Assembly (NCBI RefSeq): GCF_900128735.1
Contig: NZ_LT667503.1
Coordinates: 180,001-212,000 of the forward strand
Length of the DNA: 32,000 nt
DNA from: Candidatus Saccharimonadota bacterium
Lineage (GTDB): Bacteria > Pseudomonadota > Gammaproteobacteria > Enterobacterales > Enterobacteriaceae
Reading direction: 5' to 3'
The notes beneath the pieces were generated by a model. That model was not told the origin of the DNA and did no database searches. It saw nothing but the letters and a program-made list of their open reading frames with translations. How positions within the stretch are numbered: the first letter of the stretch is position 1; each line of letters starts with the position of its first letter. The position numbers were made by a program, and so were the translations under genes. Of this stretch, positions 6,901 through 31,832 are shown one piece after another.

Positions 6901-7480
6901 AAATTACTATACAGACAATACTAAATTAAGTGATTGCACGTGGATTAATAAAAAAAAAAATATTATCATTGCAGGTATAATTTTTTCAATAAAAATAAAA
7001 TTTACTAAAAATAATAAAAAGTTTTATCTAATTAAATTAGATGACTCATTTAGTCATTTAGAGATAATATTTTTTAGCGATTCTAATAATGATAATAAAC
7101 ATCGTTTATTAACTAAAAAAAATGTAATTGTGATTACAACAGGTGAAGTATATTTTGATAAATTTCGAGGTTGTTCACGTTTTTTAGTTAAGAATATTTT
7201 TGAACTTGAATCTTTTCGCATAAATCGTATTAAAAGTATTACATTAAAAATTCATGATTTTTTATTATTAAACAATCTAATCATTCATTCTCTAGAAAAT
7301 TATTTAATTCATCATGTCTGTGTAGGTCCAGTATATATATCATTTTTAGTTTCTGAAAAAAATCGAAAAAAATATAATATTTTTCAAAAAAACTGGAAAA
7401 TACAACCTGATAATAATTTCTTTAATTATATAAACTTTCTATCTAAAGAAATAGAAACTGAAATAATTTTTTTTAAATAA
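3956..7480 (+). CDS. dnaE: DNA polymerase III alpha subunit
   Basis: 1174 aa. PHP-domain HLKVHSDYSMTDG, palm motifs GPGRGSGPGSLVAYSL and PDFDIDFC, and FNKSHSATYA all match E. coli DnaE. Two in-frame A11 tracts (5682-5692, 6950-6960) are tolerated. Confidence 0.97.
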   Translation: MLQVKFVHLKVHSDYSMTDGLATPESLVKHAYHSNMMALGITDINNLYGVIKFCASASIYGIKPIIGMDIYISSHIIKNKIFHLTILTKNNIGYKNLINLISEAYQKGYTEDIGPVISLQEIVRYREGLLILSGGITGDIGTCLLNNDLYLLEKCIFFYKKYFLNKYYLEVSRIDKEQEYEYIKKVKHTSLFYSIPLVATNSVSFLRKKDFKIHKIRVAIHQKKNVSDPNFVYTYTKEQFLKNEKEMAELFFDIPEALVNSVEIAKRCNVIIPSGKYFLPIFSTEETNLSNFFLQKVTDGLNSRLKNNYPDKKERKKYNLIYFKRLFYETKIIKKMGFISYFLIVMEFIKWAKDHDVPVGPGRGSGPGSLVAYSLFITELDPIKFDLLFERFLNPDRVSLPDFDIDFCMDKRDLVIDHVSKKYGRYSVAQIVTFGTMAAKAVIRDVGRVLGYPYGLINKISKMVPLDPGMTLEKAFLIQKELVNLYNLNDDIKKLIDIAKKLEGVTRNIGKHAGGVVIAPTKISDFVPVFCDSQGKNQITQFDKNDVEFVGLVKFDFLGLKTLTMIYSCVQKINIEKKKLNIPEISINSLDLSDKKSFFLLKSAETMSIFQLESVGMRNLIRRLQPDSFEDIIALVALFRPGPLQSGMVDNFIARKHGREKISYPDKKWQHHLLKPILEPTYGIILYQEQVMQIAQVLAGYTPGEADLLRRAMAKKDPKEMKRQKNIFRIGSNKIGICPHLSEKIFSLLEKFSAYGFNKSHSATYALISYQTLWLKANYSAEFMASAMTLDMDNTDKIIFLIQDARRMRLKIIAPNINISNYSFSIDKNKVIIYGLGAIKGLGKTSIDHIIKERNLKKKKYKNFLDFCIRIHAKCITRRILERLIMSGACDCFQVCRIQLFKSIEYCMNFAKQYLSAIKLKQNFLFNFNYNHFLDKYTNNEDVSLITVQDIVEKKIIYFQWERETLGFYLTDHPIKNFLKEINYYTDNTKLSDCTWINKKKNIIIAGIIFSIKIKFTKNNKKFYLIKLDDSFSHLEIIFFSDSNNDNKHRLLTKKNVIVITTGEVYFDKFRGCSRFLVKNIFELESFRINRIKSITLKIHDFLLLNNLIIHSLENYLIHHVCVGPVYISFLVSEKNRKKYNIFQKNWKIQPDNNFFNYINFLSKEIETEIIFFK

Positions 7481-7512: not shown

Positions 7513-9111
7513 TTAATATTTTGTGATTTTTTTAATATATTTGATGATACTTGTTAATGAAATATTATTTATTAAACCATTATCCCTGGAATAATATTCA
7601 ACGTATTTCATTTTTATAGATTTTTGACTAATAATAATACCGTGAGGAATACCAATAAGGTTCATATCAGCAAACATTTTTCCAAAACTTTCAGAGCGAT
7701 TATCAAATAATATTTCTATTTTTTCTTTTTTTAACTCATGATATAATAATTCGGCATATTTTTTAACAAGTATAGATTTATTTATTTGAATTGGTATTAT
7801 AAAAACTTGAAAAGGAGCAATATTTGAAGGCCATTTAATGCCTTTTTTATCCGAATGCTGTTCAATAATTGCCGCGATAATTCGATTAATTCCAATGCCA
7901 TAACAACCCATATGAACGAAAGTATTTTTTCCTTTTTTATTTTTTATTTTTTTATTAAAAATAGAAGAATATTTAGTATTTAATTGAAAAATATGTCCAA
8001 TTTCTATTTTTTTTTCTATTTTTTTATTTTTTTCTTCGTTTAAAGAAAAATTATCCCTGTTTATATTTGAAATATCTATGAATTCATGAAAAAAAATATC
8101 TTGATACCAAAGTATATTACTAACTTTTTTTTCTGTATTAATAATAAAATAAGGTATTTTTTTTACATGTAAATCCGCTATTATATAAATAGTATTATCT
8201 ATAATATGTTTTATATTTAAAATATTTTGCATTTTTGGAAAAATATTTTTTATTTTTAAAAATTTGATAGGCTGATTAATTATTGAAATATTTTCTAATT
8301 TTTTGATATTTATTTGATGTATTTTATTAATAATTAAAGCAACATAAGCATTTTTTTTTTTTTTATTTTTGATAGCTACAAAAAATATTTTTATTTCTTT
8401 GGTTTGAATATAATTTAAATTTTTTAAAAATATTTGAGAGTTTTTTTTAGGTATAAGCGCATTAAATTCATGAGATATTGATCCGCCCATTGTAGAAGCA
8501 TCAGCTTTATTAACTTGAAAGATTAATTGAAATTTATTAAAAATTTTTATATATATTTTGAATATTTTTTGATAAGTTTTTTCAAGTGAATTTTGATCTA
8601 TATGAAAAGAATATGCATCTTTCATAAGAAATTCAGTGGATCGTATTACTCCAAATTGAGGTCTTTTTTCGTCTCTAAATTTTTTTTGTATCTGATAAAA
8701 CATAATAGGTAATTGTTTATATGAATTGATTTCATAATGCATAATATATGTAATTATTTCTTCGTGTGTAGGGCTTAAAATAAATTTTTTGTTTCGACGA
8801 TCTGTTAAACTTATTAATTCTTCACCATATAATTGATTTCTTCCGCTTTGATCCCAAAATTTTTTTGGTTGTAATAATGGCAAACATATTTCAAGAGCTC
8901 CATATTGATTCATAATTTTTTGAATTATTCTTGTTACTTTTTTAATTACTCGATATCCTGTGGGAAGCCATGAATATAGACCTGAAGATAACATACGAAT
9001 CATACCTGCACGTAACATTAATTGATGACTGATTGTTTTGCTATGCGCGGGTTTTTCTTTTAAGGTAGATAATAAATATTTTTTGGTATACATGGTTAGT
9101 AAAGTTCTCAT
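7513..9111 (-). CDS. proS: Prolyl-tRNA synthetase (class II)
   Basis: The N-terminus YLLSTLKEKPAHSKTISHQLMLRAGMIRMLSSGLYSWLPTG matches E. coli ProRS almost residue for residue. It is 532 aa versus 572 aa, and the shortfall lies in the insertion/editing domain. An alternative start is Met7 (9093). It contains an in-frame A14 tract (T14 on + at 8351-8364). Confidence 0.95.
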   Translation of the reverse strand: MRTLLTMYTKKYLLSTLKEKPAHSKTISHQLMLRAGMIRMLSSGLYSWLPTGYRVIKKVTRIIQKIMNQYGALEICLPLLQPKKFWDQSGRNQLYGEELISLTDRRNKKFILSPTHEEIITYIMHYEINSYKQLPIMFYQIQKKFRDEKRPQFGVIRSTEFLMKDAYSFHIDQNSLEKTYQKIFKIYIKIFNKFQLIFQVNKADASTMGGSISHEFNALIPKKNSQIFLKNLNYIQTKEIKIFFVAIKNKKKKNAYVALIINKIHQINIKKLENISIINQPIKFLKIKNIFPKMQNILNIKHIIDNTIYIIADLHVKKIPYFIINTEKKVSNILWYQDIFFHEFIDISNINRDNFSLNEEKNKKIEKKIEIGHIFQLNTKYSSIFNKKIKNKKGKNTFVHMGCYGIGINRIIAAIIEQHSDKKGIKWPSNIAPFQVFIIPIQINKSILVKKYAELLYHELKKEKIEILFDNRSESFGKMFADMNLIGIPHGIIISQKSIKMKYVEYYSRDNGLINNISLTSIIKYIKKITKY

Positions 9112-9267
9112 TTTAAGGAGCGATAAAAATAATTTATAAATTTAATTTTTATATTTTTTTTTAGAAAAAATTTTATTATCAAGAATTTTTCAATTTGATA
9201 TGTAAATTTTTTATTTTTTTATACTTTTATATATATAATAAAATATTATAAATTTTTATACAATATA

Positions 9268-10415: not shown

Positions 10416-12497
10416 ATGATAAAGTTATTACAATTTTTAAAAAAAATAGAAATATTAAAGAATCAGCAATGGCAATTTCTTTCTGTTCCAATATTAATTA
10501 TTATGATTCTGTCCATGTTAGTATTACCGTTACCTCCTATTGCATTAGACATTTTTTTTACATTTAATATAGTATTATCTATTATGATTTTACTTGTATC
10601 TATGTTTACTCAGAACACTCTTGACTTTTCTTCCTTTCCAACTATTTTATTATTTTCAACATTATTACGTTTAGCATTAAATATTGCGTCCACACGTGTT
10701 ATTTTATTATATGGTAATACAGGTTCTTTTTCGGCGGGACATGTAATTGAGGCATTTGGTTCTTTTTTAATTGGAGGCAATTTTGCTATAGGGATAGTGA
10801 TATTTATTATTTTAGTTGTGATAAATTTTTTAGTAATCACTAAGGGATCTGGAAGAATTGCAGAAGTAGGTGCGCGATTTTTTTTAGATTCTATGCCTGG
10901 AAAACAAATGGCGGTAGATGCCGATTTAAATTCAGGAATGATTTCAATAGAAGAAGCTAAAAATCGACGTAATACTATAGAACAAGAATCAGATTTTTAT
11001 GGAGCTATGGATGGAGCAAATAAATTTATTAGGGGTGATGCTATTGCTGGAATATTAATAATGATTGTAAATATTATCGGAGGTTTATCTATTGGAATTT
11101 TACAGTATCAAATGTCATTTTTACAAGCCGCTACTGTTTATAGCATTTTAACTATTGGAGATGGTTTGGTAACCCAAATTCCCGCATTACTTATCTCTAC
11201 TGCTTCTGGAGTTATTGTTACTCGCGTTAGTACTAATGATAAAAATATTGGTGAACAAATGATTTATCAAATTTTTAATAATCCAAAAATTATTTTATTA
11301 GGAGGTATTGTTTTAGGAATTTTTGGTTTAATACCGGGTATGCCAAATTTTATGTTTTTAATTTTTACATTTGGTTTATTTTTTTTGTCATGGTGGATAT
11401 ATACTACAAATGTTGTGCAAATTTCCACATCAGAAGACTCTAAGAATTTTAGTTATTCTGAAATAATGGAGCCATCATGGAGAGACGTTCAATTTGAAAA
11501 TCCAATTGTAATTGAATTAAGTAAAAAATTATTATTTATTATAAAACCGAGTCAAGAAAATGATTTTTTAAAAAAAATTCAGGTAATAAGAAAAAATATT
11601 ACTCAAAATTTTGGTTTTTTACTTCCGAATATTAATATTACTTATAATTCTAGTTTAGAAAATGGTTGTTATCGAATTTTAATAAAAGGTGTAGAGTATG
11701 GACAAGGAAAGGGTTATATAAAAAAATTACTTGCTATTGATTCATTTAGTACTATGCATCAATTGTCTGGTATTAAAATTCAAGAACCTGTTTTTGGTTT
11801 ATCTGCGTATTGGATTGATCCTCTGGAAAAAGATGTAGCCATTCAAAAAAAATTTACAATCGTAGATATCTCTACAGTGTTAGTTACGTATATAAATAAA
11901 ATTCTTATTGATAATATACATGAATTATTAGGATTTCAAGAAATTCATCAATTGATAGAACATATTTCAGAAAATTTTCCTAAATTAATAGATCATTTAA
12001 TACCTAATATAATATCTACAGCAACATTCCAGAAAATTTTGAAAAATTTATTAAAAGAAAAAATTCCCATTCGTGATATCTCTTCTATTTTAGAAGCTCT
12101 TTTGAGTCATGGGGTCAATTTAAAGAATAATATATCAGCTTTAACTAGTGCTGTGCGTATATCACTAAAAAAAATTATTACTCAGAAGTTTTTTTTTCAA
12201 AATTATTATATTAATGCGATTGGTTTAAGTCAAAATCTTGAGAAAATATTATTGCAGCTTGTAAGATCTAAAAATAATATTATGGAACCCAATTTTTTAG
12301 AAAATTTAATTATTAAAACAAAAAATTCTATTGTAAATCAAAAAAAATTAAAAGAACCAATAGTATTATTAGTCCATCACGATTTACGCATAATGTTATC
12401 TGAAGTATACTATTATAGTATACCAGATTTAATTATATTATCTTATTTAGAAATTATTGAAACCCGTAAAATATGTATAACTACCGAAATTAAATAA
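10416..12497 (+). CDS. flhA: Flagellar type III export apparatus protein FlhA
   Basis: The 693-aa reading from ATG 10416 (6 nt after the flhB stop) matches the E. coli FlhA N-terminus (QWQFLSVPILIIMILSMLVLPLPP.. vs QWQILAGPILILLILSMMVLPLPA..) and its length (692 aa). The RFFLDSMPGKQMAVDADLN motif is present. The longer ORF-track start at 10308 overlaps flhB and is rejected. Confidence 0.94.
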   Translation: MIKLLQFLKKIEILKNQQWQFLSVPILIIMILSMLVLPLPPIALDIFFTFNIVLSIMILLVSMFTQNTLDFSSFPTILLFSTLLRLALNIASTRVILLYGNTGSFSAGHVIEAFGSFLIGGNFAIGIVIFIILVVINFLVITKGSGRIAEVGARFFLDSMPGKQMAVDADLNSGMISIEEAKNRRNTIEQESDFYGAMDGANKFIRGDAIAGILIMIVNIIGGLSIGILQYQMSFLQAATVYSILTIGDGLVTQIPALLISTASGVIVTRVSTNDKNIGEQMIYQIFNNPKIILLGGIVLGIFGLIPGMPNFMFLIFTFGLFFLSWWIYTTNVVQISTSEDSKNFSYSEIMEPSWRDVQFENPIVIELSKKLLFIIKPSQENDFLKKIQVIRKNITQNFGFLLPNINITYNSSLENGCYRILIKGVEYGQGKGYIKKLLAIDSFSTMHQLSGIKIQEPVFGLSAYWIDPLEKDVAIQKKFTIVDISTVLVTYINKILIDNIHELLGFQEIHQLIEHISENFPKLIDHLIPNIISTATFQKILKNLLKEKIPIRDISSILEALLSHGVNLKNNISALTSAVRISLKKIITQKFFFQNYYINAIGLSQNLEKILLQLVRSKNNIMEPNFLENLIIKTKNSIVNQKKLKEPIVLLVHHDLRIMLSEVYYYSIPDLIILSYLEIIETRKICITTEIK

Positions 12498-12504
12498 ATA
12501 TTTT

Positions 12505-14232
12505 TTACATTTTATTTACGGTATCAATTCCTAAAATATTTAGGCCTATTTTGATTATTTTAGCGGTTAATTGAACTAATGTTAGTCGACTATATTTAGT
12601 TTTTTGATCGTTAGAAAGTAAGATGCTACAATTTTCATAAAAATGTGAGAAATTTTCTGATAATTCATATAAGTAATTACACATAAGATGTGGCGTTCCT
12701 TTTTTTTCGATGCTATATACTACTTCTTCAAATTGTAATATTTTTAATATTAATTGTCTTTCAAATTTTGTATAGATATGTATTGTATGGTGGATATTTT
12801 TTTTTTGATGATCATTATAAAATTTTTTGAGGATTGATTGTATACGGGTATATGCATATTGAATATATGGTGCAGTATTTCCGGTAAAGGATAACATTTG
12901 GTTCCAGTCAAAAATATAATCATGATTTCTATTTTTTGATAAATCAAAATATTTAATTGCTCCAATTCCAATTATTTTAGCTGTTTCTTTTATTTCTTTT
13001 TTATTGAGTTTTGAATTTTTTTCTTGTAGTATTTTTTTAGCTCTAGAAATTCCTTCATCTAATAAATCTTTTAATTTAATTACATTGCCGTCTCTTGTTT
13101 TAAAAGGTTTTTTATTTTTAGATAAAATCATGCCAAATGAATGATGTTCTAGAATGAGATTTTCTGGGATATATCCAGCTTTCTTAGCGATGTACCATAC
13201 TTGTAAAAGATGTTGTTTTTGTCGGATATCAGTATAATAAATAATTTGATTAGCTTTCAATGTTTCATATCGGTATTTTAAGCAAGCAATATCAGTAGTA
13301 GTATATAAAAATGCTCCGTTTTTTTTTTTAATAATTATACCCATATTTTTACCGTTTCGATTTTTAAATTTATCGGTATATATAATAACTGCACCTTTAT
13401 ATAGAGTTGCAATACCTTTATTTTGTAAATCTTTGACAATATCAGGCAACATAAAATTATAAAAACTTTCACCATAAATATCTTTTTTTTTTAATTTAAC
13501 ATTTAACTTTTCATATATTTTTTGGTTTTTTTCAATAGTTTTTTGGACTATTTTTCTCCAAATATATAAACATTTTTTATTATGATTTTGTAATTTTACA
13601 ACATATTTTTTAGTCTTTTTTGCAAATTCTTTATTGATTATATATTTTTTATATGCCTTTTGATAAATTTTTTCACTTTTGTTTAGTAAATTTTTTTCTT
13701 TTTTTTGATCATACAAATAAGCAATTAACATTCCAAATTGTGTACCCCAGTCTCCTATATGATTTTGTTTGATGACTTGATGTCCTAAAAATTTCATAAT
13801 TCTTACGGTAGCATCGCCTAATATAGTTGATCTGAGATGTCCAATATGTAGTTCTTTAGCTATATTTGGTGATGAATAATCAATAATTACTATTTTTTTA
13901 TTTTTTGTTTTAATTCTGATATTTTTTTTCTGACTAAGAGAATTAATGTGTTTTAGTAACCATAATTGAGAAAATTGAATATTTATAAAACCCGGCTGAG
14001 ATACACTAACACACTGAAAATCTGGAGATAATTTAAGCGAATCGGCAATTTTTTTTGCGAATTGGTATTTTTTTTCGTGAAGCATATTAGAAAGCTTAAT
14101 TATTCCGTTGCATTGATAGTCAATATTTTTTTTTTTATGATTTATTTTAATGATTGGATCAAATTTCTTTGGAGCACCTATTTTAATTCCAATTTTATAT
14201 ATTTTATTGTTTAAAAATTTTTGAACGTACAT
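12505..14232 (-). CDS. argS: Arginyl-tRNA synthetase (class I)
   Basis: 575 aa versus 577 aa in E. coli. It carries the HIGHLRS signature and a KTRDGN (MSTR-like) segment. It is adjacent to flhA as in E. coli and lies upstream of rrs as described for Buchnera. Confidence 0.96.
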   Translation of the reverse strand: MYVQKFLNNKIYKIGIKIGAPKKFDPIIKINHKKKNIDYQCNGIIKLSNMLHEKKYQFAKKIADSLKLSPDFQCVSVSQPGFINIQFSQLWLLKHINSLSQKKNIRIKTKNKKIVIIDYSSPNIAKELHIGHLRSTILGDATVRIMKFLGHQVIKQNHIGDWGTQFGMLIAYLYDQKKEKNLLNKSEKIYQKAYKKYIINKEFAKKTKKYVVKLQNHNKKCLYIWRKIVQKTIEKNQKIYEKLNVKLKKKDIYGESFYNFMLPDIVKDLQNKGIATLYKGAVIIYTDKFKNRNGKNMGIIIKKKNGAFLYTTTDIACLKYRYETLKANQIIYYTDIRQKQHLLQVWYIAKKAGYIPENLILEHHSFGMILSKNKKPFKTRDGNVIKLKDLLDEGISRAKKILQEKNSKLNKKEIKETAKIIGIGAIKYFDLSKNRNHDYIFDWNQMLSFTGNTAPYIQYAYTRIQSILKKFYNDHQKKNIHHTIHIYTKFERQLILKILQFEEVVYSIEKKGTPHLMCNYLYELSENFSHFYENCSILLSNDQKTKYSRLTLVQLTAKIIKIGLNILGIDTVNKM

Positions 14233-16668: not shown

Positions 16669-17214
16669 TTAAAATTTTTTATTAATTAAATATACTTTTT
16701 TTTGATTTTTTATTATTATATCTGAATTTTTTTTTAATATTGAATATTTTATTTTTTGTTCGGAATATAAATCAGTTTTTTTTGGATTTCTGGCTTCTTT
16801 TTTTGCTATTTTATCGCACATTGTATTTTCTTTGTGATTTGTATGTGATTTTGTCCATATCCAATTAATATTATGTTTTCTAATCACTTGATCTAATCTT
16901 AACCATAAATCCTGATTACAGACTGGTTTTTTATTTTTTGTTAACCAATAATTTTTTTTCCAACTATGAATCCATAAAATTATTCCCAAACGTAAATATT
17001 GACTATCTGTAATTAAATTAACTATACATGGTTCTAAAAGAGATTCTAATCCCAAAATTGCTGCCATCAGTTCCATTCTATTATTTGTGGTGTAATAAAA
17101 TCCAAATTTAATTACTTTTTGATATTTTTTGTACCGGGTTATTGCACATAACCCTCCTGGACCAGGATTATATAAACACGACCCATCAGTAAATATTTCA
17201 ATTTTTTTTAACAT
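16669..17214 (-). CDS. rnhA: Ribonuclease HI
   Basis: MLKKIEIFTDGSCLYNPGPGG.., TNNRMELMAA and DSQY motifs match E. coli RNase HI. It is 181 aa versus 155 aa because of a Lys/Ile/Asn-rich C-terminal extension. It is divergent from dnaQ as in E. coli. Confidence 0.95.
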   Translation of the reverse strand: MLKKIEIFTDGSCLYNPGPGGLCAITRYKKYQKVIKFGFYYTTNNRMELMAAILGLESLLEPCIVNLITDSQYLRLGIILWIHSWKKNYWLTKNKKPVCNQDLWLRLDQVIRKHNINWIWTKSHTNHKENTMCDKIAKKEARNPKKTDLYSEQKIKYSILKKNSDIIIKNQKKVYLINKKF

Positions 17215-20472: not shown

Positions 20473-21338
20473 TTAGATATTTTTTTGAATATTAGATAAT
20501 TTGACCCATAGTTTTAAATGTGTTTTTTTATATAAAAAATTCTCTATTTTTTTTCTTGATATTATACTAAAACGTTTTATTTTTTTTCCTTTTTGACCAA
20601 TTATTATTTTTTTATATCGAATATTTGGAACTAAAATAATAGCATCAATGTTATATTCTTTTTTTAAATTTTTAATAATACTTGGTATATATATCTTTAT
20701 ATTATATGGTATTTCTTTATTTAAAAAATTCAGCAACGTTTCTCTAATTATTTCCGTGATTAAAAATTGTATATTATAGATTGATTTTTTTTCCTTAGGA
20801 TATTGATATATATTTTTTGGCATTTTTTCTTGTATTAATTTAATCACTTGATTTAGATTTTTATCTTTTGTAGCAGAAATTAAAATAATTTTTTTATTGA
20901 GTGTTTTTTGATATATTTTCTTAATATATGGCAATAATAAAGTTTTATTTTTTATTTTATCTATTTTATTAATGATGGTTATATAATATATATTTTTTTT
21001 TTCCATATAATTTAATAAATTTTGTTCTTTATTTGTCCAGATTAAAGATTCTAAAATAAATAAAACAACATTTGCTTTTTTTAAATATTGATATGTATTT
21101 CTGTTTTTTTTTTTTCTAAAAAACTATTTTTATTTTTTTTTAGTCCCGGAGAATCTATTAAAATAGATTGAATGGTATCAGTAGTGTGAATACCAATAAT
21201 ATGTTCTTTTGTAGTATTCGATTTATTAGAGGTTATAGAAATATTTTTTTTTACTATTTTATTTAAAATTGTTGATTTTCCTACATTAGTTCGTCCTACT
21301 AAGAGTACATGACCACAATATTTTTTTTCTTTATTCAT
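20473..21338 (-). pseudogene. era: GTPase Era, reading frame broken once inside an A12 tract (possibly rescued by slippage, or a homopolymer sequencing error)
   Basis: The N-terminal ORF (21338-21081) carries G1 GRTNVGKST and G3 DSPG. The second frame, open from 21122 downward, reads ..KKKNRNTYQYLKKANVVLFILESLIWT..IINKID.. (G4) and the KH motif IIGQKGKKIK, colinear with E. coli Era. The two frames meet in the A12 run (T12 on + at 21104-21115), and A13 or A10 gives one roughly 288-aa ORF. Confidence 0.9.
21104..21115 (-). repeat. A12 homopolymer (sense strand of era) at the frameshift point
   Basis: Counted directly: ctgTTTTTTTTTTTTc on the + strand. Confidence 0.9.
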
Positions 21339-21343
21339 ATATT

Positions 21344-22024
21344 TTATTCAATTTCCATTTTAATTAATGCATTCTGAGCAGCATTTTGTTCTGCTTTTCT
21401 TCTACTAGAACCAATGCCAATTAATATATCATGTATTCCATTGATTTTACAAGTAATTGTAAATACTTGATTATGAGCTTCTCCATATATTTTTCCTATA
21501 TTATATAATGGTAAAGGAAAGTGTTTTGCTTGTAAATATTCTTGTAATCTTGTCTTAGGATCTTTTTGTATACTAAAAGGGTTGATTTTCTTAAAACGAT
21601 ATTTATACCATTGTAAAACTATTTTTTCTACAGTATATATATTGCTATCTAAAAAAATACTAGCAATAATAGCTTCAATGGTATTAGCTAATATAGATTC
21701 TCGTTTAAAACCTCCGCTTTTTTGTTCTCCTTGACCTAATTGTAAATAGTTTCCTAAAGAAAACTCATATGCAATTTCTGCTAATGTATTTCCACGTACT
21801 AATGTAGCTCTCATACGGCTCATATCACCTTCATTTGCTTCTGGAAAATGATGATATAATGCTTTTGCAATGATAAAACTTAATATAGAATCGCCTAAGA
21901 ATTCTAATCTTTCATTATGTTTAATGCTAGCGCTCCTATGTGTTAATGCATGATGTAATAAGGATATATTTGTGAATTTATATCCTATAAATTTTTGTAA
22001 TTTATCTATTACTATCGAATTCAT
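21344..22024 (-). CDS. rnc: Ribonuclease III
   Basis: 226 aa, the same as E. coli. It has the signature [17 protein letters not shown] and a C-terminal dsRBD ..[16 protein letters not shown]. Confidence 0.97.
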
Positions 22025-22121
22025 ATTATCCTAATGAAATAAAGGTAAAAATTAAAATTTAATTTAAACGATAGATTTAATCAATATTTTTAAAAATTTT
22101 TTAAATAATATTTATTAAAAT

Positions 22122-23035
22122 TTATTTAATTTTGTGAAATATTCTATCAAAACGTATTTTTTGAAACCATGTTTTTGTATATTGATTAATACTTAACCAA
22201 ATGTATTGAGCTTTTCCTATAATATTCTTTTCAGATACTAATCCTAAAAGTCGACTATCCATACTTTTATCTCTATTATCACCCATTACAAAATATTTTT
22301 TTTCAGGTATTATCCATCTTCTTTTTACACCACATAATTTTTTATAATATAAAAACGAATAATTCTTTACTCCATGTAATAATATTATATTATGTTTCTG
22401 ATTTTTTATTTTTTCTACATAACAATCAACAATTATTGAATGATATGTTCTATTATTGTTATTTTTTTGTAAATTCTTATCATTTTTTTTAAAAGACTTA
22501 GATGTAACAATTATTTTATTAGAATAATTATGATTTATAAAAGATTTGATTTGCGTATTTTTTTCTATTATATATAATTTTTTAGTAAATGGATTATATT
22601 CAATGATATCTCCAGGTAGACCGATAATACGTTTTATATAATTTATATTTTTGTTTATAGAATATGAAAAAACGATAACATCGTTTCTTTTTGGAAGATT
22701 ATTTTTGATCCAAACATGATTATTAATGGGGTTTTTGATTCCATATAAAAATTTATTAACTAATATAAAGTCACCAGTTAATAATGTCGGATTCATTGAA
22801 TTTGAAGGTATATGAAACGGTTCATAACAAAATAATCGCATTATAGTAATAAAAAAAAGAATAGGAAAAAATTTAGAAGCATTTTTTAAATATTTTTTTT
22901 TTTAAAAATATGAAGATCATCATTATTTCTTGATATATAATATGTGTAATATATTTGATATATATGATTAAAAATCCATAAAATACCAGTACTTATTGTT
23001 GATAAAATTAATAATTTTATAATGAATAAACGCAT
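22122..23035 (-). pseudogene. lepB: Signal peptidase I LepB, reading frame broken once inside an A11 tract (possibly rescued by slippage, or a homopolymer sequencing error)
   Basis: From ATG 23035 the first frame gives MRLFIIKLLILSTISTGILWIFNH.. (E. coli ..LVIATLVTGILWCVDKF, TM1) and stops at 22888-22886. The second frame reads YLKNASKFFPILFFITIMRLFCYEPFHIPSNSMNPTLL.. (catalytic Ser), KRIIGLPGD (catalytic Lys) and GDNRDKSMDSR. The frames meet at A11 (T11 on + at 22893-22903), and A12 or A9 gives a roughly 304-aa ORF. Confidence 0.9.
22893..22903 (-). repeat. A11 homopolymer (sense strand of lepB) at the frameshift point
   Basis: Counted directly: taTTTTTTTTTTTaaaaa on the + strand. Confidence 0.9.
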
Positions 23036-23055
23036 TTTTTTTACCTTTTTTTTGT

Positions 23056-24849
23056 TTATTTTTTATTTATTGCTAGAATAGAAGAAAAGATTTCTGGTGG
23101 AATACTTACCGATCCAAAATTTTTCATTTTTTTCTTACCTTTTTTTTGTTTCTGTAATAATTTCTTTTTACGACTAACATCACCTCCATAACATTTTGCA
23201 ATAACATTTTTTCTAAGTTGTTTGATAGTTTCACGGGCAATAACTTTATTTGATATTTTTGCTTGTATAGAAATATCAAACTGATGTCTGGGCATAAATT
23301 TTTTTATATTTTGAATAATACTTTTAGCTTGATCTTGTATTTTATTTTTATGAGTTATAGTTGATAAAGCGTCTAACTTTATTAAATTAATAAAAATATC
23401 TATTTTTAAGAGTTCACTTGTTTTAAATTTTTTAAATTTATATTCTAGAGACGCATATCCACTTGAAACAGATTTTAATTTATCAAAAAAATTTAAAACA
23501 AGTTCAGATAAAGGGATTTCATATGATATCACAGTTTGCGTCTCATGATATATTAAACTTTTTTGTTTTCCTCTGTTTTTTTTACATAATTGCATCACGT
23601 TACCAATATATTTGATTGGAGTAATAATAATACAGTCCGCAATTGGTTCACGAATTTTTTTAATTAAATTCAGAGAAGGGAGTTTAGTTGGATTATCAAT
23701 ATATATTTTTTTTTTATTATTTAAGATAATTTCGTATCCTACTGTAGGAGATGTAATAATTAAGTTAATACTATACTCACGTTCTAAACGTGATTGAATA
23801 ATTTCTAGATGTAATAGCCCTAAAAATCCACATCTAAATCCTAAACCTAATACTTTTGAATTGTCTGGTTCATAATATAGAGCTGTATCATTTAATTGTA
23901 ATTTCATTAAAGCGTCTTTAAAATATGGAAATTGATCAGGATGTTTTGGAAAAAAACCAGCATAAATTTTTGGTTTAATTTTTTTAAATTTTGGTAAAGC
24001 TTTTTGGGCTGGTTTATTATATGAGGTAATTGTTTCTCCGACTACTAAAGAAGAAATATTTTTAATACCACAAATAATCCAGCCTACTTCGCCACATGAT
24101 AACATCTTTTTTATTTTTCTTTTTGGAGTAAATATACCTAATTTTTCAACTTGATAAATGTTTTGAGAATTTACGATTTTAATTTTATCTTTAATTGCGA
24201 TGCAACCATTTTTAATACGGATTAAAGAAACTACACCTAAATACTTATCAAACCAAGAATCAATTATTAAAGCCTGTAAGGGATTTTCTTTACTCCCTTT
24301 GGGAGCGGGAATTTTTTCAATGATTTTTTCTAATAATTGTAAAATGCCAAATCCTGTTTTTGCTGAGCATTTAATTGCATCTTCCATAGATATTCCTATA
24401 ATATTTTGAATATCTTGAGTTACTTTAACTGGATTGGCATTTGGTAAATCAATTTTATTTAATACAGGTAGAATTTTTAAATTTAAATTTAGTGCGCTTC
24501 GACAATTAGCAATAGTTTGAGCTTCTACTCCTTGAGCTGCATCAACAACAAGTAAAACGCCTTCACATGCTGATAATGATCTAGATACTTCATAAGAGAA
24601 ATTTACATGACCCGGTGTATCGATAAAGTTTAAAAAATAATTTTTTTTATTTTTAGCTTGATATTTAATCATTACGCTTTGTGCTTTAATAGTAATTCCG
24701 CGTTCACGTTCTAAATCCATGGAATCAAGAACTTGCGAAGACATTTCTCTTGGTGATAAACCGCCACAAATTTGTATTAATCTATCAGATAACGTTGATT
24801 TACCATGATCTACATGGGCAATAATAGAAAAGTTTCTTATATTTTTCAT
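23056..24849 (-). CDS. lepA: Elongation factor 4 (LepA)
   Basis: 597 aa versus 599 aa. [31 protein letters not shown] and NKIDL GTPase motifs are present. It lies upstream of lepB as in E. coli. Confidence 0.97.
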
Positions 24850-25196
24850 AGATTTTGTTTCTCGTTATTGTAGATTGTTTTTAAAAAGAGTTATCTTTAT
24901 TTTTTATTTTTAATTTTTTATATTTTTTAGTTAATAATATCATATTTCTTTATATATTTTTATACCGATAAAAATTTTTGTGTTAAAATTAAAAAATAAT
25001 TTTTATATTGGAAAATATTTTTTCAATAAATATTGAATATTTTGATTATTAATTAGATTTATTTTACTAAAAAATAAATTTTTTTTTATTTATTTTTTAA
25101 AGATCGTATTATATTGATATTCCTGATTATATATCATTAAAAATTTATATTTTTTTTTCCATTTGTTATATTTTTAAAAAAAAAATCAAGGTATAG

Positions 25197-26327
25197 ATGA
25201 TTTTTAAGCATGAGCAATTTATGAAAAAAAATAAAAAAGTTATTTTAGCTATGTCGGGAGGAGTGGATTCATCTGTTTCTGCGTGGTTTTTATTGAAAAA
25301 AAAATATCATGTAGAAGGTTTATTTATGAAGAATTGGGAAGAAGATGATACTAAAGAATATTGTGCTGCACGAAAAGATTTAGAAGATGCGCGTCATGTT
25401 TGCAAAACACTTGGTATTTATTTACATGTAATAAATTTTTCTACAGAATATTGGGAAAAGGTATTTATAAAATTTGTTAAGGAATATAAAAAAGGAAATA
25501 CACCTAATCCAGATATATTATGTAATCAAGAAATAAAATTTAAAGTTTTTTTTAAATTTGCCATTGAAATATTAAAAGCGGATTATATAGCTACTGGACA
25601 TTATGCAATTATAAAAAAAATAAACTTAAACTATTATCTTTTTCGAGCTATGGATGTAAATAAAGATCAAAGTTATTTTTTATATACTTTAAAACAAGAT
25701 GTTATGTCAAAAATTTTATTTCCATTAGCTAAAAAAAAAAAAGTAGAAATTAGAAAAATTGCTAAAAAAATAAATTTATGTGTTTTTAAAAAAAAAGATT
25801 CTACAGGAATTTGTTTTATTCCTCCTCAAAAATTTTCTATTTTTTTAAGTCGTTATATACCTATATCAATAGGAAAGATTTTAACTATGTCTTCTGAGCA
25901 TATAGGATTTCATATTGGATTTTCTTATTATACAATAGGTCAAAGAAAAGGATTAAAAATTGGTGGACAAAAAAATAAGGGAGTTTTTCCGTGGTATGTT
26001 GTAAAAAAAGATATTTTTAAAAATATTATTTTCGTAGTTCAGGGCAAAGGTAATCCTTATCTTTTATCTTTTGGTATTTTAGTTAAAAAAATAAATTGGA
26101 TTGATAAGATTAATCTTTTAAACAACATATATTGTACAGTACAAATTAGATATCGTCAGATTGCAGTTCCTTGTATAGTGATATTTTTAAAGAATCGATT
26201 ATTAACTAAAATTTTATTTTATAAACCATTATTATCAGTCACTATAGGTCAGTCAGCTGTTTTTTATCAAAATAAAAAATGTATCGGTGGAGGTGTAATT
26301 AAATCAATTTTTCCTTATTTACCATAA
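25197..26327 (+). CDS. mnmA: tRNA 2-thiouridine(34) synthase MnmA (TrmU)
   Basis: PP-loop [18 protein letters not shown] and [13 protein letters not shown] match E. coli MnmA. The start may be ATG 25221 ([14 protein letters not shown]). It contains an in-frame A12 tract (25731-25742). Confidence 0.95.
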
Positions 26328-26456
26328 ATTGCTTTGTATTAAAATGAAAAGATATAATTTGCACTAGAAAAAATAGTCTTTTTATACAGAGAACTTTTAA
26401 TTTTTTAGATACTTTTATAACATTAGTATCTTGATATAATAGGTATAAAATTAATT

Positions 26457-27235
26457 ATGCATTTTTTAAAAAAAAAAAAATATTAATAGTTGGTATTACT
26501 AACATTTTTTCAATATCCTGGGGTATTGCTAAAGTTATGTATAAATTTGGAGCGGAATTAGCATTTGTTTATAAAAGGAAAAAATTAAAAAATCGTATTC
26601 AAAATTTTGCAAAAACATTAAATTCTAATATTGTTTTACAGTGTAATATAAATTCTGATACTGAGATAAAAATTTTGTCGCGTAAATTATATCAACATTG
26701 GAAAAAATTTGATGGCATTATACATGCTGTTGCGTATGTACCTTTATCACAATTACAAGAAAATTATCTTCAAATAGCTAATCGTCAGGATTTTTTAGCA
26801 ACTCATGAGTCTTGTTCCTTTAGTTTAGTAGCTTTAGTAAAAGAATTGTATCCATTATTAAATGAAAATTCATCTATTGTAACTTTATCATATTTAGGAT
26901 CTATAAAATATATTCCATTTTATCATGTTATAGGTCCTGCAAAGGCATCTTTAGAAGCCAATGTGCGTTATTTAGCATATTGTGTGGGGAAAAAGAATAT
27001 TCGGATTAACGCAGTATCATCTGGACCAATAAAAACTTCTTCTTCCTATAAGATTCCATTTTTTAAAAAAATTTTTTCATTATATAAGAGTTATTCACCG
27101 TTAAAAAAAAACACGACCAGTAAAGAAATAGGTAATGTAACTTCTTTTTTATGTTCTGATTTAGCTAGCGGTATTACTGGACAAATTATATATGTTGATT
27201 CTGGTTTTAGTATTTCTAATATGTTCCCATCGTAA
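26457..27235 (+). pseudogene. fabI: Enoyl-ACP reductase FabI, 5' end out of frame at an A13 tract (possibly rescued by slippage, or a homopolymer sequencing error)
   Basis: ATG 26457 reads MHFLKKKKY-stop. The main frame reads (K)n-ILIVGITNIFSISWGIAKVMYKFGAELAFVY.., then YHVIGPAKASLEANVRY (Tyr/Lys catalytic pair). With A14 the N-terminus becomes MHFLKKKKILIVGITN.., exactly colinear with E. coli MGFLSGKRILVTGVAS. The main frame has no ATG upstream of Met 26537, and starting there would delete the dinucleotide-binding loop. Confidence 0.88.
26468..26480 (+). repeat. A13 homopolymer at the fabI frameshift point
   Basis: Counted directly: ttttttAAAAAAAAAAAAAtatt. Confidence 0.9.
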
Positions 27236-27387
27236 ATTTTTCTTATTTTTATTAAAAAACATTTAACGGATATTTAAAAATTTTTTTTTAAAATATTAAT
27301 TTAATATACAGTCTTTATATATATTTTAAATGTAAATCTTTAATTTTATATTTTTTTATGTATAAAAAAGGATTAAATAACATTATT

Positions 27388-29334
27388 ATGCTTCAAAATA
27401 ACCCTGTACTTATGAAGTTAAAAAAAAAATTCAATAAAAAAAATATAAAAGCAGAAGGTATTGTAAGAAGTACATCTAAAAGTTATGGTTTTTTAGAAAT
27501 AGATTCTAAAAAAAAATATTTAATTGCTTCTAAAAATATGAAAAAAGTTATGAATGGCGATAAAATTATTGGTAGTATAATTGTAAAAAATAACCGAAAA
27601 ATGATATATCCAGAAAAATTGATAGAACCATTTTTAAAAAAATTTATCGGAAATGTTTATAAAATCAATGATTTAATTTTTCTTCAACCAATTTATCCTT
27701 ATTTAAAGGGAGTGTCATTACATTGTTTATGTGCTGTTAATACTTCTATTTTAAAAGATGGTGACTGGGTTCTTGGAAAATTAACTAGCCATTGTTTAAA
27801 TCAAAAAAATGTTTTTGAAGCAAAAATTATCGATTTTATTGCTCAGAAAGAAAATCCATTAGCTCCATGGTATGTTGTATTAACTAGATATAATTTAGAA
27901 AAATCTTCACCAGAGATAAAAAAAAATAATTTAATATATCGCAATAATAGTCTAAAAATTCGTAAAAATTTAACTCATTTAGATTTTATAACTATAGATA
28001 ATAGTAATACAAAAGATATAGATGACGCAGTTTTTGTAGAAAAAATTTCAAATGAGAATTATTCTTTAACTATTGCTATAGCTGATCCCACTGAATATAT
28101 ATCTAATAATACTGATCTTGATAATATTGCAAAAAAAAGAAGTTTTACAAATTATTTACCAGGATTCAACATACCTATGTTGCCAAAAATTTTATCAGAA
28201 GATTTATGTTCTTTAAAGCAAAATGAAATTCGTCCTGTTTTAGCATGTCGTGTTATTATAGATGCGAAAGGAAATATATTATATAAAGATTTAGAATTTT
28301 TCTTAGCATATATTCAATCTAAGAGTCAGTTATCATATGATAATGTATCAAATTGGTTAGAAAAATTAGGAATTTGGAAACCTAAAAATAAAAAAATTAA
28401 GAAACAAATAAAATTATTAAAAATAATATATGATATTAGATATAAATGGAGAAAAAAGAATGCATTAATTTTTCCTAACTATCCAGAATATCGTTTTAAT
28501 TTATCTGAAAAGAAAGAAGTTTTAGGTATTTTCATTGAAAATCGTAGAGTAGCGCATAAAATTATAGAAGAGTGTATGATTACAGCTAATATATGTGCAG
28601 CTTTTTTTTTAAAAAATACTTTAGGTTTTGGTTTATATAATACTCATATAGGTTTTGATGTTGTAAATGCTAACTCTGCTTCTAATTTTTTAAAAAAATA
28701 TAACATTTTTGTTCAGTCTCATGAAATTATGACGTTAAAAGGATTTTGCAAATTACATAAATATTTAAAAAATTTGTCAAATAATTATATTTATAATCGA
28801 ATTTGTAAACTACAAGCTTTTGGTGAACTTAGTTTAATACCACAAGCGCATTTTGCCTTAGGTTTAGATTATTATGCGACTTGGACATCTCCTATTCGAA
28901 AATATAGTGATATTATCAATCATCGTTTAATAAAATCTGTAATTATGGGTTTAAAAAATATTAGAAAACCAGAGCAGGATGTTGTTACTCATATTTTAAA
29001 TCGTAGACGACTTTATCGCATTGCAGTTAAAGAATTAGAGAAATGGTTATATGTCCAATTTTTTTTCAAATATTATAAAAATAATCAGTACTTAAAAGCT
29101 ACCATCACTGATATTTTTAAAAATGGAATACAGGTACGTTTAATTAATAATGGTGCCTTTGTTTTTATACCAGCATCTTTTATACATCAATTAAAAACAG
29201 AGATAACTTTTAATACTGAATTAGGTGTGGTATACATACATAATAAGATTTACTATTATGTTACAGATATTATTAAGGTTCGTTTATTAAGTATTAAAAA
29301 AGAAAATAATACAATTATTGCGAGTATAATTTAA
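27388..29334 (+). CDS. rnb: Exoribonuclease II (RNase II)
   Basis: From Met 27388, MLQNNPVLMKLKKKF..KAEGIVRSTSKSYGFLEID matches E. coli MFQDNPLLAQLKQQL..RAEGVVKATEKGFGFLEVD. The RNB motif TKDIDDAVFV and a C-terminal S1-like domain are present. The ORF-track start at 27358 adds 10 unsupported codons. Confidence 0.94.
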   Translation: MLQNNPVLMKLKKKFNKKNIKAEGIVRSTSKSYGFLEIDSKKKYLIASKNMKKVMNGDKIIGSIIVKNNRKMIYPEKLIEPFLKKFIGNVYKINDLIFLQPIYPYLKGVSLHCLCAVNTSILKDGDWVLGKLTSHCLNQKNVFEAKIIDFIAQKENPLAPWYVVLTRYNLEKSSPEIKKNNLIYRNNSLKIRKNLTHLDFITIDNSNTKDIDDAVFVEKISNENYSLTIAIADPTEYISNNTDLDNIAKKRSFTNYLPGFNIPMLPKILSEDLCSLKQNEIRPVLACRVIIDAKGNILYKDLEFFLAYIQSKSQLSYDNVSNWLEKLGIWKPKNKKIKKQIKLLKIIYDIRYKWRKKNALIFPNYPEYRFNLSEKKEVLGIFIENRRVAHKIIEECMITANICAAFFLKNTLGFGLYNTHIGFDVVNANSASNFLKKYNIFVQSHEIMTLKGFCKLHKYLKNLSNNYIYNRICKLQAFGELSLIPQAHFALGLDYYATWTSPIRKYSDIINHRLIKSVIMGLKNIRKPEQDVVTHILNRRRLYRIAVKELEKWLYVQFFFKYYKNNQYLKATITDIFKNGIQVRLINNGAFVFIPASFIHQLKTEITFNTELGVVYIHNKIYYYVTDIIKVRLLSIKKENNTIIASII

Positions 29335-29441
29335 TCTTGTTTTCAAGGTAAATATAATTTAAACTTAATGTATATAGTATATGACTATTTAAAACTTTTT
29401 TTTATAATTTTATCAAAAAACATATCATTTAGGAATTTCCA

Positions 29442-30110
29442 ATGAATTTTTTTAATACAGAATTATATGTATATATCAAATTTTTTATTAGTCTTTTTAC
29501 AATTATTAATCCAATTGGAATGATTCCGGTTTTTATCAGTTTAACGAATAATCAAACCAATAATGAAAGAAATAAAACCAATATGAAAGCAAATTTTACA
29601 GCTTTAATTATTTTATTATTTTCTTTATTTTATGGTTGTTATGTTTTAGACGTTTTTAATATATCAATTGAATCCTTCCGTATAGCTGGAGGTTTATTAA
29701 TTTTTACGATCGCTTACTCTATGATAAACGGAACATTATTAAAAAATATATCATGTTTTACATCTAAAAATAATATTTCTAATATAAATAAACAGAAAAA
29801 ATTATCTGCACAAGATATTTCTATTATGCCGTTAGCTATGCCATTAATAGCAGGGCCAGGTGCTATTAGTTCTGTGATTTTGTGGAGAATGCAGTATTCT
29901 AATTATTATCACTTAATTGGTTTTTCTTTTGTTATTGTCTTTTTTTCTTTTTTTTGTTGGGTAGTTTTTAAAATATCTCCATATATTACTACTATTATAG
30001 ATGAAATTTATATTACAGTCATTAATCGTATAATGGGTTTATTGTTATTAGCTCTTGCAGTAGAATGTATTTTTAACGGTATGAAATCAATTTTTTTTAG
30101 TTATATTTAA
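29442..30110 (+). CDS. ychE: UPF0056/MarC-family inner membrane protein YchE
   Basis: 222 aa. FISLFTIINPIGMIPVFISLT, FRIAGGLLIF, PLAMPLIAGPGAISS and INRIMGLLLLALAVE match E. coli YchE block for block. Confidence 0.88.
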   Translation: MNFFNTELYVYIKFFISLFTIINPIGMIPVFISLTNNQTNNERNKTNMKANFTALIILLFSLFYGCYVLDVFNISIESFRIAGGLLIFTIAYSMINGTLLKNISCFTSKNNISNINKQKKLSAQDISIMPLAMPLIAGPGAISSVILWRMQYSNYYHLIGFSFVIVFFSFFCWVVFKISPYITTIIDEIYITVINRIMGLLLLALAVECIFNGMKSIFFSYI

Positions 30111-30186
30111 TTTTTATACCTGACATTACTTAATTTTATTTTAAAAATTTTTATATTTAATCAATATTTATATTTAAAATTATAAT

Positions 30187-30828
30187 ATGCATATTATTAT
30201 TCGAGATCTAGGTTTGTGTAGTTGGTTAGAAGTATCAGAAAATATGAATCATTTTACAAAGCATCGTAAGGATGGGACGTTTGATGAATTATGGTTAGTT
30301 GAACATTATCCTGTATACACTCATGGTTTATCAGAAAAAAAAATAAAATTGAAGTATATTCAAGAGATACCGGTTTTTTTTTCAAATCGAGGAGGAAAAA
30401 TTACGTATCATGGTCCAGGGCAATTAGTAATATATATATTATTAAATCTAAAGCGTAATCATATTAAATTTAGAAATTTTATTCATATTATAGAAAAAAT
30501 CATAATTCAAGTACTTCTTTTTTTTTCTATTACGGCACATATTAAAAAAGATCAACCAGGAGTATATATTAATAATCAAAAAATATGTTCTCTTGGTTTT
30601 CGTATTATAAAGGGGTGTTCTTTGCATGGCGCTTCTTTAAATATTAATATGGACTTAACTCCATTTAAATATATCAATCCGTGCGGAAGAAAAGATATTA
30701 TAATGACACAAGTATGTCATCATAATAAACATGTTACAATAAATATTGTAAAAGAAGTTTTAATAAAAATTTTTTGTAAAAATTTTAAAATTAAAAAATA
30801 TTGTAAAAAGAAAATGGAGCATGATTAA
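30187..30828 (+). CDS. lipB: Octanoyltransferase LipB
   Basis: 213 aa, the same as E. coli. LWLVEHYPVYTHG, GGKITYHGPGQLVIY, KICSLGFRI (catalytic Cys) and INPCG are present. Confidence 0.95.
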   Translation: MHIIIRDLGLCSWLEVSENMNHFTKHRKDGTFDELWLVEHYPVYTHGLSEKKIKLKYIQEIPVFFSNRGGKITYHGPGQLVIYILLNLKRNHIKFRNFIHIIEKIIIQVLLFFSITAHIKKDQPGVYINNQKICSLGFRIIKGCSLHGASLNINMDLTPFKYINPCGRKDIIMTQVCHHNKHVTINIVKEVLIKIFCKNFKIKKYCKKKMEHD

Positions 30829-30905
30829 ATTATTTTTCTTTTTAATATTAATATAATATCAAAATAAAATAATATAGTTGATAAAAATATGAAAAATCAT
30901 AAAAT

Positions 30906-30921
30906 AAAAAAAAAAAAAAAA
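30906..30921 (+). repeat. A16 homopolymer between an upstream ATG (30889) and the lipA reading frame
   Basis: Counted directly: aaaatAAAAAAAAAAAAAAAAt. Confidence 0.9.
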
Positions 30922-30983
30922 TAAATATACCAGTACACGATATTACATATACTCAAAATAAAATAAAAAGAAAGATAGAGTAT

Positions 30984-31832
30984 TTGAAAAAACCAGACTG
31001 GTTACGAATTCGTTTACCAGTCGTTACAAAAAATGTAAAAAATATTAAATTACTACTAAGAAAATATAAATTATATTCTGTGTGTGAAGAAGCTCAATGT
31101 CCTAATTTATCTGAATGTTTTAATCGAAGTACGGCGACTTTTATGATTTTAGGATTTATTTGTACAAGAAAATGTCCATTTTGTGCTGTTATAAAAGGTC
31201 GTCCAATTATTCCTGATGATCAAGAACCTGAAAAATTATATCATGTAATTATGAAATTAAATTTAAAATATGTTGTGTTAACTTCAGTGACTCGGGATGA
31301 TTTATATGATGGAGGAGCTAAACATTTTTATAATTGTATACGTTTTATTCGTAATATAAAAAATATTAAAGTAGAAATTTTAGTTCCCGATTTTCGAAAA
31401 AATATTAAAATAGCTTTAAAAATTATTAGAAAATGTCCACCAGATGTATTTAATCACAATATTGAAAACGTTCCTCGTTTATATTCGATTATTCGTCCCG
31501 GAGCTAATTATCAACATTCATTAACATTATTACGTACATTTAAGAAATATTGCCCTGATATACCGACTAAATCTGGTTTAATGTTAGGATTAGGAGAATA
31601 TCCTGATGAAGTTTTTTCTGTTTTAAAAGATTTAAAAAAGAATGGAGTTTCTATTATTACAATAGGTCAGTATATGCAACCAAGTAAAAAACATTTACCG
31701 GTTAAAAAATACATTACCCCACAGGATTTTGATCTTTTTCAAAAATATGCAATATCTTTAGGTTTTCGTCATGTCTTTTGTGGTCCACTAGTACGTTCCT
31801 CTTATCATGCTGATCAACAAATTATGACTTAA
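30984..31832 (+). CDS. lipA: Lipoyl synthase LipA (minimal ORF from TTG 30984; it may start at ATG 30889 if the A16 tract is read as A17 or A14)
   Basis: [24 protein letters not shown], the radical-SAM motif [10 protein letters not shown] and a C-terminal RSSYHAD all match E. coli LipA. The frame stays open upstream through ..[22 protein letters not shown] back into the A16 run, but it has no ATG there. Confidence 0.93.

Follow-up and report, generated by a model that had tools for sequence, protein, structure and literature searches.

Poly(A) frameshifts rescued by transcriptional slippage were reportedly described in insect endosymbionts by Tamas et al. in 2008, the cases being Buchnera cell-wall genes and a Blochmannia histidine gene, and ancient homopolymer frameshifts kept by selection are said to have been described in Blochmannia by Wernegreen et al. 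in 2010. Here we analyzed a 32-kb stretch of DNA (the window, numbered by its own positions 1-32,000) in which the reading frames of four genes are broken at poly(A) tracts: era, coding for GTPase Era; lepB, coding for signal peptidase I; fabI, coding for enoyl-ACP reductase; and lipA, coding for lipoyl synthase.

A passage of PMC5009743 that cites Tamas et al. 2008 gives 12-50% as the share of frame-corrected transcripts from frameshifted Buchnera and Blochmannia genes. Among the transcription errors of Buchnera, 151/157 insertions were located in homopolymers, versus 16/57 deletions; homopolymer insertions were mostly of a single base, and their rates climb exponentially with run length (PMC5574713). 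Genes frameshifted at poly(A) tracts have been annotated as functional by curators of Buchnera genomes (bioRxiv 10.1101/2022.08.28.505559) and were regarded as functional in the annotation of Blochmannia, eight frameshifted genes being reported for Blochmannia vafer (PMC3017870). Programmed transcriptional realignment is known from the transposases of insertion sequence (IS) elements, from Thermus dnaX and from potyvirus P3N-PIPO (PMC1088944, PMC4552492), and phase-variable homopolymer contingency loci are known from Neisseria, Haemophilus and Campylobacter (PMC2831843).

The window has a G+C content of 24% by base composition and a gene order of the Buchnera type. Its RNase III shares 92% identity with the enzyme of the Cinara tujafilina strain of Buchnera aphidicola, the remaining top matches are all from Buchnera, and the proteins of the window are recorded at NCBI as Buchnera aphidicola. 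Judging from the sequence, the host genome is that of Buchnera aphidicola of a Cinara-type aphid, and the setting is thus the one in which poly(A) frameshifts have been described, a reduced, AT-rich obligate insect endosymbiont. The traits of the class attributed to Tamas et al. were also found in the window: a break borne by a tract, full-length restoration by one base, and a gene otherwise intact and under purifying selection.

Frame breaks at four poly(A) tracts

The coding regions of the window contain exactly ten sense-strand A runs of at least 11 nt; sense-strand T runs as long as this are absent. The initial annotation had counted about ten, with the same genes and lengths. Frame breaks coincide with four of these tracts, era A12, lepB A11, fabI A13 and lipA A16; the six tracts that are in frame were used as comparators (Table 1).

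Three-frame translation and frame bookkeeping divided each broken gene into two open reading frames (ORFs), an upstream one that begins with the ancestral ATG and a long downstream one that is read in a different frame. In all four genes the tract falls within the zone over which both frames are open. For lepB this zone is 16 nt long and holds the tract plus TATTTAA; for lipA it is 22 nt long, the tract with its flanks; and the era tract is the sole long run within a zone of 43 nt. The break in era falls inside the GTPase domain.

The phase of the break is +1/-2 in all four genes, as had been proposed at the outset, although a uniform phase in four of four cases is not significant alone (P = 0.125). 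Insertion of one A generates stop-free ORFs of 288 (era), 304 (lepB), 259 (fabI) and 314 (lipA) codons. Each restored protein matches an NCBIfam family model as a single stretch across the junction: Era with residues 7-282 on positions 2-276 of the 291 of NF000908, LepB with residues 8-299 on positions 8-320 of the 324 of NF008114, FabI with residues 1-256 on positions 1-256 of the 262 of NF005938, and LipA with residues 23-310 on positions 5-292 of the 302 of TIGR00510. The downstream frames are open over 216-309 codons; from base composition, about one stop per 11 codons is estimated for random sequence.

No further frame break was found. In tblastn searches with orthologues, the remaining genes from 12.5 to 32 kb gave matches in a single frame. 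The proteins DnaE, ArgS, MnmA, BamA and RnhA match NCBIfam models over their full length, and none of the approximately 120 runs of 8-10 nt in the window breaks a frame. The breaks next to the start codons of fabI and lipA were missed by tblastn alone, the matches of which run through stops, and were located by frame bookkeeping. Apart from era, lepB, fabI and the 5' end of lipA, no gene of the window showed a frame change, as the initial annotation had stated.

A fifth candidate, at the 5' end of proS (A9, 9154-9162), was rejected: with its start at 9111 (MRT...) ProS has the usual N-terminus, and the run lies between genes.

Long homopolymers in the window are strongly strand-biased: sense-strand runs of at least 10 nt number 17 for A versus 2 for T, and the single intergenic run of at least 10 nt is located at 25176-25185. 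By window half, the second half has four broken out of eight tracts of at least 10 nt, versus none of nine in the first; the value of P ~0.03 for this split was calculated by hand and post hoc, is nominal, and was not used.

The tracts in other Buchnera lineages

The window was compared with ten orthologous Buchnera loci (L081-L090), obtained via their RNase III proteins, so that 11 lineages were covered. L081 is from a C. tujafilina strain, which we take to be 454-sequenced, and L087 is from a C. cedri strain (BCc) and Sanger-finished.

In all four genes the ancestral spacing is restored by the addition of one A, and not by the removal of two, and the residue register with the orthologues is regained. 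Era with one A added has 25 residues from PGL to the VxF strand, the same number as in L083 and in Escherichia coli (counted from the E. coli sequence), and reads ...LEKKKNRNTYQYLKKANVVLFILE, which aligns without gaps to ...EKKKLRDTFNLINEMNIIIFLI of L085. The orthologous tract of fabI is A14 and in frame in L083 and BCc, and A11 and in frame in C. tujafilina. For lipA, a tract of A17 gives a spacing equal to that of C. tujafilina (MKNNKINKKKSLNIP). The earlier proposal that ancestral spacing indicates +1 in fabI is thus borne out; its counterpart, -2 in era, is contradicted by the PGL spacing, and with it falls the drift of tract length in both directions that had been deduced from the pair, one A being sufficient to restore the register in all four genes.

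The region around the era tract shows other irregularities among the relatives. In C. tujafilina (L081 ~10900-10960), compared with window positions 21040-21125 (- strand), era carries several mutually compensating non-triplet indels, and TCAATATTTAAAAAAA is read in a different frame; from the alignment this looks like a past frameshift mended by nearby indels, as described for Blochmannia. In BCc the era ORF extends 17 codons beyond the usual stop and overlaps acpS. The flanks of the era tract and a fabI 29-mer gave no match in metagenome scans.

The tract in the lepB loop is out of frame, in the +1/-2 phase, in 6 of the 11 Cinara-type lineages, with lengths from A11 to A19, and is in frame in the other five, BCc (A15) included. 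On a concatenated-protein tree the lineages with the break belong to both major clades and are interleaved with those in frame. Other internal poly(A) frame breaks were found in the relatives, and their phase is always +1/-2. Breaks in lipB occur in three lineages at one orthologous site, ~65% into the gene, where lipB of the window is in frame; acpS is broken in L083 (A11), and the 5' end of smpB in L084-L086 and L089. Among the relatives with breaks, L083 and L084 are automatic read-level assemblies; three more loci are curated records that present a broken gene as one coding sequence (CDS) of non-triplet length (890, 896 and 617 nt).

BCc and C. tujafilina were left out of the test for clustering of the breaks; the nine loci that were used hold 79 sense-strand tracts of at least 11 nt. 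Fourteen of these tracts are broken, among them six of seven at the lepB loop site and three of four at the lipB site, a degree of clustering by site that was reached in 0/20,000 length-stratified permutations. Longer tracts are not steadily more often broken, the counts being 0/17 for A14, A15, A17 and A18 together and 5/23 for A12. Breaks that cluster by site, and not steadily by length, are not expected from purely length-driven miscalling.

Frame changes of the opposite phase (+2/-1) were seen near 3' ends in C. tujafilina, in argS (L081 19833-19842, A10), lipA (L081 382-389, A8) and flhA (L081 20138-20146, A9). These could be due either to real C-terminal remodelling or to homopolymer over-calls. 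As they lie in shorter runs and have the opposite phase, the assemblies within this group do differ, a point on the side of an artefact. An apparent two-frame tblastn match for acpS in C. tujafilina was not counted.

The ratio of non-synonymous to synonymous substitution rates (dN/dS), calculated against C. tujafilina, was 0.34 for era, 0.30 for lepB, 0.20 for fabI and 0.21 for lipA, and ranged from 0.05 to 0.52 for 12 intact neighbours. With L083 as outgroup, the four broken genes had 74 unique amino-acid changes on the window branch versus 92 on the C. tujafilina branch, and the intact genes 120 versus 172. The broken genes are under ordinary purifying selection, with neither acceleration on the window branch nor extra decay. 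Era and LepB have essential, single-copy functions in E. coli, and both genes are kept in 11 of 11 lineages. Given the ordinary dN/dS, the lack of branch acceleration and the open downstream frames, era, lepB, fabI and lipA are functional, or were so until very recently. This selection signal is equally consistent with rescue of the frame, with an artefact and with a break of very recent date.

Table 1. Poly(A) tracts, broken genes and possible alternative starts. Locations are window positions unless a locus is given; TM1 and TM2 are the first and second transmembrane segments.
Feature	Location	Strand	Remarks
dnaE A11	5682-5692	+	in frame (comparator); dnaE matches full-length model
dnaE A11	6950-6960	+	in frame (comparator); dnaE matches full-length model
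proS A14	8351-8364	-	in frame (comparator)
argS A11	13319-13329	-	in frame (comparator)
argS A11	14126-14136	-	in frame (comparator)
mnmA A12	25731-25742	+	in frame (comparator)
era	20473-21338	-	ORFs 21338-21081 (85 codons) and 21006-20473 in different frames
era A12	21104-21115	-	T12 on + strand; codons about 74-78; needs +1/-2
lepB	22122-23035	-	49-codon N-terminal ORF (TM1 and loop) and 239-aa catalytic ORF in different frames
lepB A11	22893-22903	-	cytoplasmic loop, just before TM2; needs +1/-2
fabI	26457-27235	+	9-codon ORF from ATG 26457; body frame open from 26435
fabI A13	26468-26480	+	codons 4-9; needs +1/-2
fabI restored junction peptide			MHFLKKKKILIVG
fabI ATT, body frame, upstream of tract	26450-26452	+	RefSeq start of 261-aa FabI; possible bypass of break
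lipA	30889-31832	+	11-codon ORF from ATG 30889; body frame open from 30903
lipA A16	30906-30921	+	codons 6-11, N-terminal to conserved LipA part; needs +1/-2
lipA TTG, body frame	30984-30986	+	just before conserved core of LipA; possible internal start (ORF 30984-31832), which would make A16 break irrelevant
lepB A12, relative	L083 9132-9143		out of frame
lepB A19, relative	L084 9157-9175		out of frame
lepB A12, relative	L085 9140-9151		out of frame
lepB A11, relative	L088 9131-9141		out of frame
lepB A16, relative	L089 9149-9164		out of frame
lipB A13, relative	L082 1278-1290		broken, same phase
lipB A12, relative	L085 1751-1762		broken, same phase
lipB A12, relative	L088 1878-1889		broken, same phase

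Origin of the frame breaks

With modest confidence, we read the four breaks as real genomic deletions of a single A in lysine-coding poly(A) tracts that would be rescued during expression. The break in lepB appears to be the most secure of the four, and the pattern across the aligned loci is better matched by frameshifts that are inherited, or tolerated at particular sites, than by random miscalling of homopolymers.

Replication slippage in A runs of at least 11 nt would drop one A and break the frame. RNA polymerase, slipping backwards on the T-run template, would then introduce an extra A into some of the transcripts, through which the frame would be regained, and non-programmed -1 slippage of the ribosome on A-AAA-AAA could add to the rescue. 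For fabI and lipA, initiation at another codon of the body frame may also contribute. Full-length Era, LepB, FabI and LipA would thus be expected at a reduced yield, and not to be lost.

Both routes of correction would add one nucleotide, so that only alleles one A short would be efficiently rescued and survive selection. As slippage in Buchnera is strongly insertion-biased, the one-A-short alleles would be the class best corrected, and the uniform phase, then expected under selection, does not point to an artefact. It may represent a selective filter, and not an error signature, with lepB, lipB and smpB as long-lived sites at which the frameshift toggles; we propose this tentatively, as a reading that has some chance of being right but falls short of probable. 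If it is true, a considerable share of the essential proteins would be produced only via errors of transcription or translation, with a load in the window that is unusually high (4 of 24 genes, era and lepB included). This count agrees with the figure of about 15% of the genes given in the initial annotation. The load, which had been called unusually heavy, is the highest of the 11 lineages, but the phenomenon itself is routine in the clade. Dosage tuning, which had also been suggested, received no support from anything tested.

Several observations weigh against the rescue of real deletions. Traverse and Ochman found no frame-restoring transcription error in their Buchnera data. No stimulatory RNA structure was detected in the 60 nt downstream of the tracts when compared with shuffled sequence (z = -0.67, -0.07, -1.19 and +0.42 for the four tracts). 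All four tracts are one A below the ancestral in-frame length, as under-calling would also give. The breaks in era, fabI and lipA are unique to the window genome, the ten relatives all being in frame there; four tracts of at least 11 nt are broken in the window and no more than two in any relative. The orthologous region of BCc (L087 1-20681) contains 25 sense-strand A tracts of at least 11 nt, up to A18, none of which is broken; the difference is significant both against the window (4/10 versus 0/25, Fisher P = 0.004) and against all non-Sanger loci (Fisher P = 0.02). None of the 14 tracts of at least 11 nt in L090 is broken either.

The tracts could instead have been under-called by one A through homopolymer error or stutter in the polymerase chain reaction (PCR), some or all of them and mainly the three breaks seen in the window genome only, the real genes being in frame. 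For era, fabI and lipA an artefact is plausible; taken as an account of the breaks we consider it possible but rather unlikely. The exact deficit of one A in four of four tracts, the three breaks confined to one genome, and the load compared with relatives and with Sanger-finished BCc all speak for it, as do the normal purifying selection on the broken genes and their lack of secondary damage, and the homopolymer inaccuracy of 454 sequencing is acknowledged (PMC3622351). Against it, breaks in related assemblies recur at the same sites whatever the length of the tract, with no steady rise of the broken fraction by length, and the six other A11-A14 tracts of the same window are in frame. A noisy long-read platform is also difficult to reconcile with the intact 8-10 nt runs. 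The lepB break, in the same phase, is common to five other lineages, read-level assemblies and curated single-CDS records among them. Artefact and slippage-rescued drift, between which the initial annotation had left the choice, thus both keep some weight; a real event is favoured at least for lepB, by the five other lineages and the clustering by site, and the diagnosis of an artefact from uniform phase does not hold.

Alternative initiation could bypass two of the breaks, fabI being translated from the ATT at 26450 through the tract, and lipA from the TTG at 30984, with the tract left in the 5' leader. This is compatible with the other explanations and does not apply to era, broken at codon ~75, or to lepB, broken between TM1 and TM2. 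The body frame of fabI is open from upstream of the ATG, RefSeq starts its FabI at this ATT, and an AGG is located 6 nt upstream of it. In LipA, the match to the family model begins past the tract, at residue 23 of the restored protein, and the N-terminal 30 residues are poorly conserved between lineages. However, ATT and TTG are weak starts, and in the upstream frame C. tujafilina agrees with the window in the ancestral ATG and in the initial residues (MxFL in FabI, MKNxKI in LipA). In place of the lipA TTG, C. tujafilina has TTA, not a start codon, and initiation at the TTG would cut off ~10 residues aligned to the LipA model. We regard bypass by alternative initiation as improbable for both genes.

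The RefSeq annotation of this genome avoids calling frameshifts: FabI, of 261 aa, is annotated from the ATT (MNYAFFKKKK...; it begins MNYAFFKKKKILIVG), and what is left of Era at the C-terminal end appears as a 'KH domain-containing protein' (189 and 194 aa).

That the breaks are real but not rescued, the four genes being very recent pseudogenes heading for loss, is highly improbable: gene erosion in endosymbionts usually begins with homopolymer indels (PMC3017870; PMC3622351) and neighbouring genes have been lost in the clade (gloB from the window, ychE from several relatives), but era and lepB are retained throughout, the downstream codons have acquired neither stops nor indels, dN/dS and branch lengths are ordinary, and in lepB the break has lasted in the two deep clades with conservation of the catalytic domain.

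Gene content and relation to known systems

The first part of the window contains dnaE, proS, flhB, flhA and argS, followed by a 16S rRNA gene with tRNA-Ile and tRNA-Ala; the second part contains rnhA, dnaQ, tRNA-Asp, grpE, smpB, tadA, acpS, era, rnc, lepB, lepA, mnmA, fabI, rnb, ychE, lipB and lipA. The ORF adjoining dnaQ (16669-17214, - strand, 181 aa) was identified as rnhA; it covers positions 2-147 of the 151 of the RNase HI model and has a C-terminal extension of ~30 aa. In the Buchnera of C. tujafilina a 180-aa remnant of gloB is located beside rnhA (L081 15269-15811). As no tblastn match to gloB was found in the window, its loss appears, on this comparison, to be lineage-specific. In tblastn searches with orthologues, ychE was missing from several relatives.

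The product of proS (7513-9111, - strand) has just 532 aa and matches the ProS models in two separate stretches, with no frame break, which suggests an internal deletion, possibly in the region of the editing domain. In the mnmA ORF, read from 25197, 12 residues precede the start of the MnmA models, and translation probably begins in fact at the ATG at 25221.

Should the breaks be real, they would add to the known cases in which, in bacterial genomes of the most degraded kind, essential genes, here coding for a ribosome-assembly GTPase, the only signal peptidase I, and enzymes of fatty-acid and lipoate synthesis, persist as formal pseudogenes whose expression depends on the infidelity of polymerases. 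Annotation pipelines split or truncate such genes, and metabolic reconstructions of aphid symbioses hinge on counting them as functional. The phenomenon itself is already known, reportedly from the work of Tamas et al. and of Wernegreen et al., and the present instances are routine for Cinara-associated Buchnera; only the consistent phase and the recurrent toggling at the lepB, lipB and smpB sites across the clade are mildly new. The current understanding of the phenomenon is unchanged by these findings. The one-A-short phase together with the recurrence at lepB, lipB and smpB could nevertheless provide a quantitative test of whether insertion-biased slippage shapes the frameshift alleles that survive.

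Among the known systems, phase-variable contingency loci share with the window a change of homopolymer length that switches the coding frame. Such loci, however, turn surface or restriction genes of free-living pathogens on and off in a heritable manner, through DNA slippage, whereas the window concerns a clonal, vertically inherited symbiont. Assignment to this class was rejected, as Era, signal peptidase I, FabI and lipoyl synthase are housekeeping proteins, and not products of surface, restriction or virulence genes.

In -1 frameshifting of the dnaX type (A AAA AAG), as in the tracts described here, an A-rich slippery site for tRNA-Lys is present, and a -1 shift would correct the +1/-2 phase. 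Unlike the dnaX-type sites, the slippery A runs of the window have no downstream stimulatory structure, and any contribution of this kind would be non-programmed. Programmed -1 ribosomal frameshifting was rejected, since the 60 nt downstream of the tracts fold no better than shuffled sequence.

Programmed transcriptional realignment resembles the proposed rescue in that stuttering of the polymerase on an A/T run shifts the frame in part of the mRNAs and the dominant product has one additional A. In the programmed cases each of the two products is put to use, at a site conserved for regulation, whereas in the window the shift would only repair a defect, and the truncated products show no sign of function.

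As in the ancient frameshifts of Blochmannia, several species or clades share both the site and the phase of the break, for lepB, which is broken in the window, and for lipB and smpB among the relatives, the gene being otherwise conserved. In contrast to the Blochmannia cases, the state toggles, with broken and intact lineages intermixed on the tree, and the breaks in era, fabI and lipA occur in one lineage.

The phenomenon seen in the window is the one reportedly described by Tamas et al. The present cases differ from it in the genes concerned (era, lepB, fabI and lipA), in the Cinara-type Buchnera host, and in being known here from the assembled sequence; they share with it the organism group, sense-strand A tracts of ~10 nt or more, breaks by deletion of a single A, and the essential functions of the genes affected.

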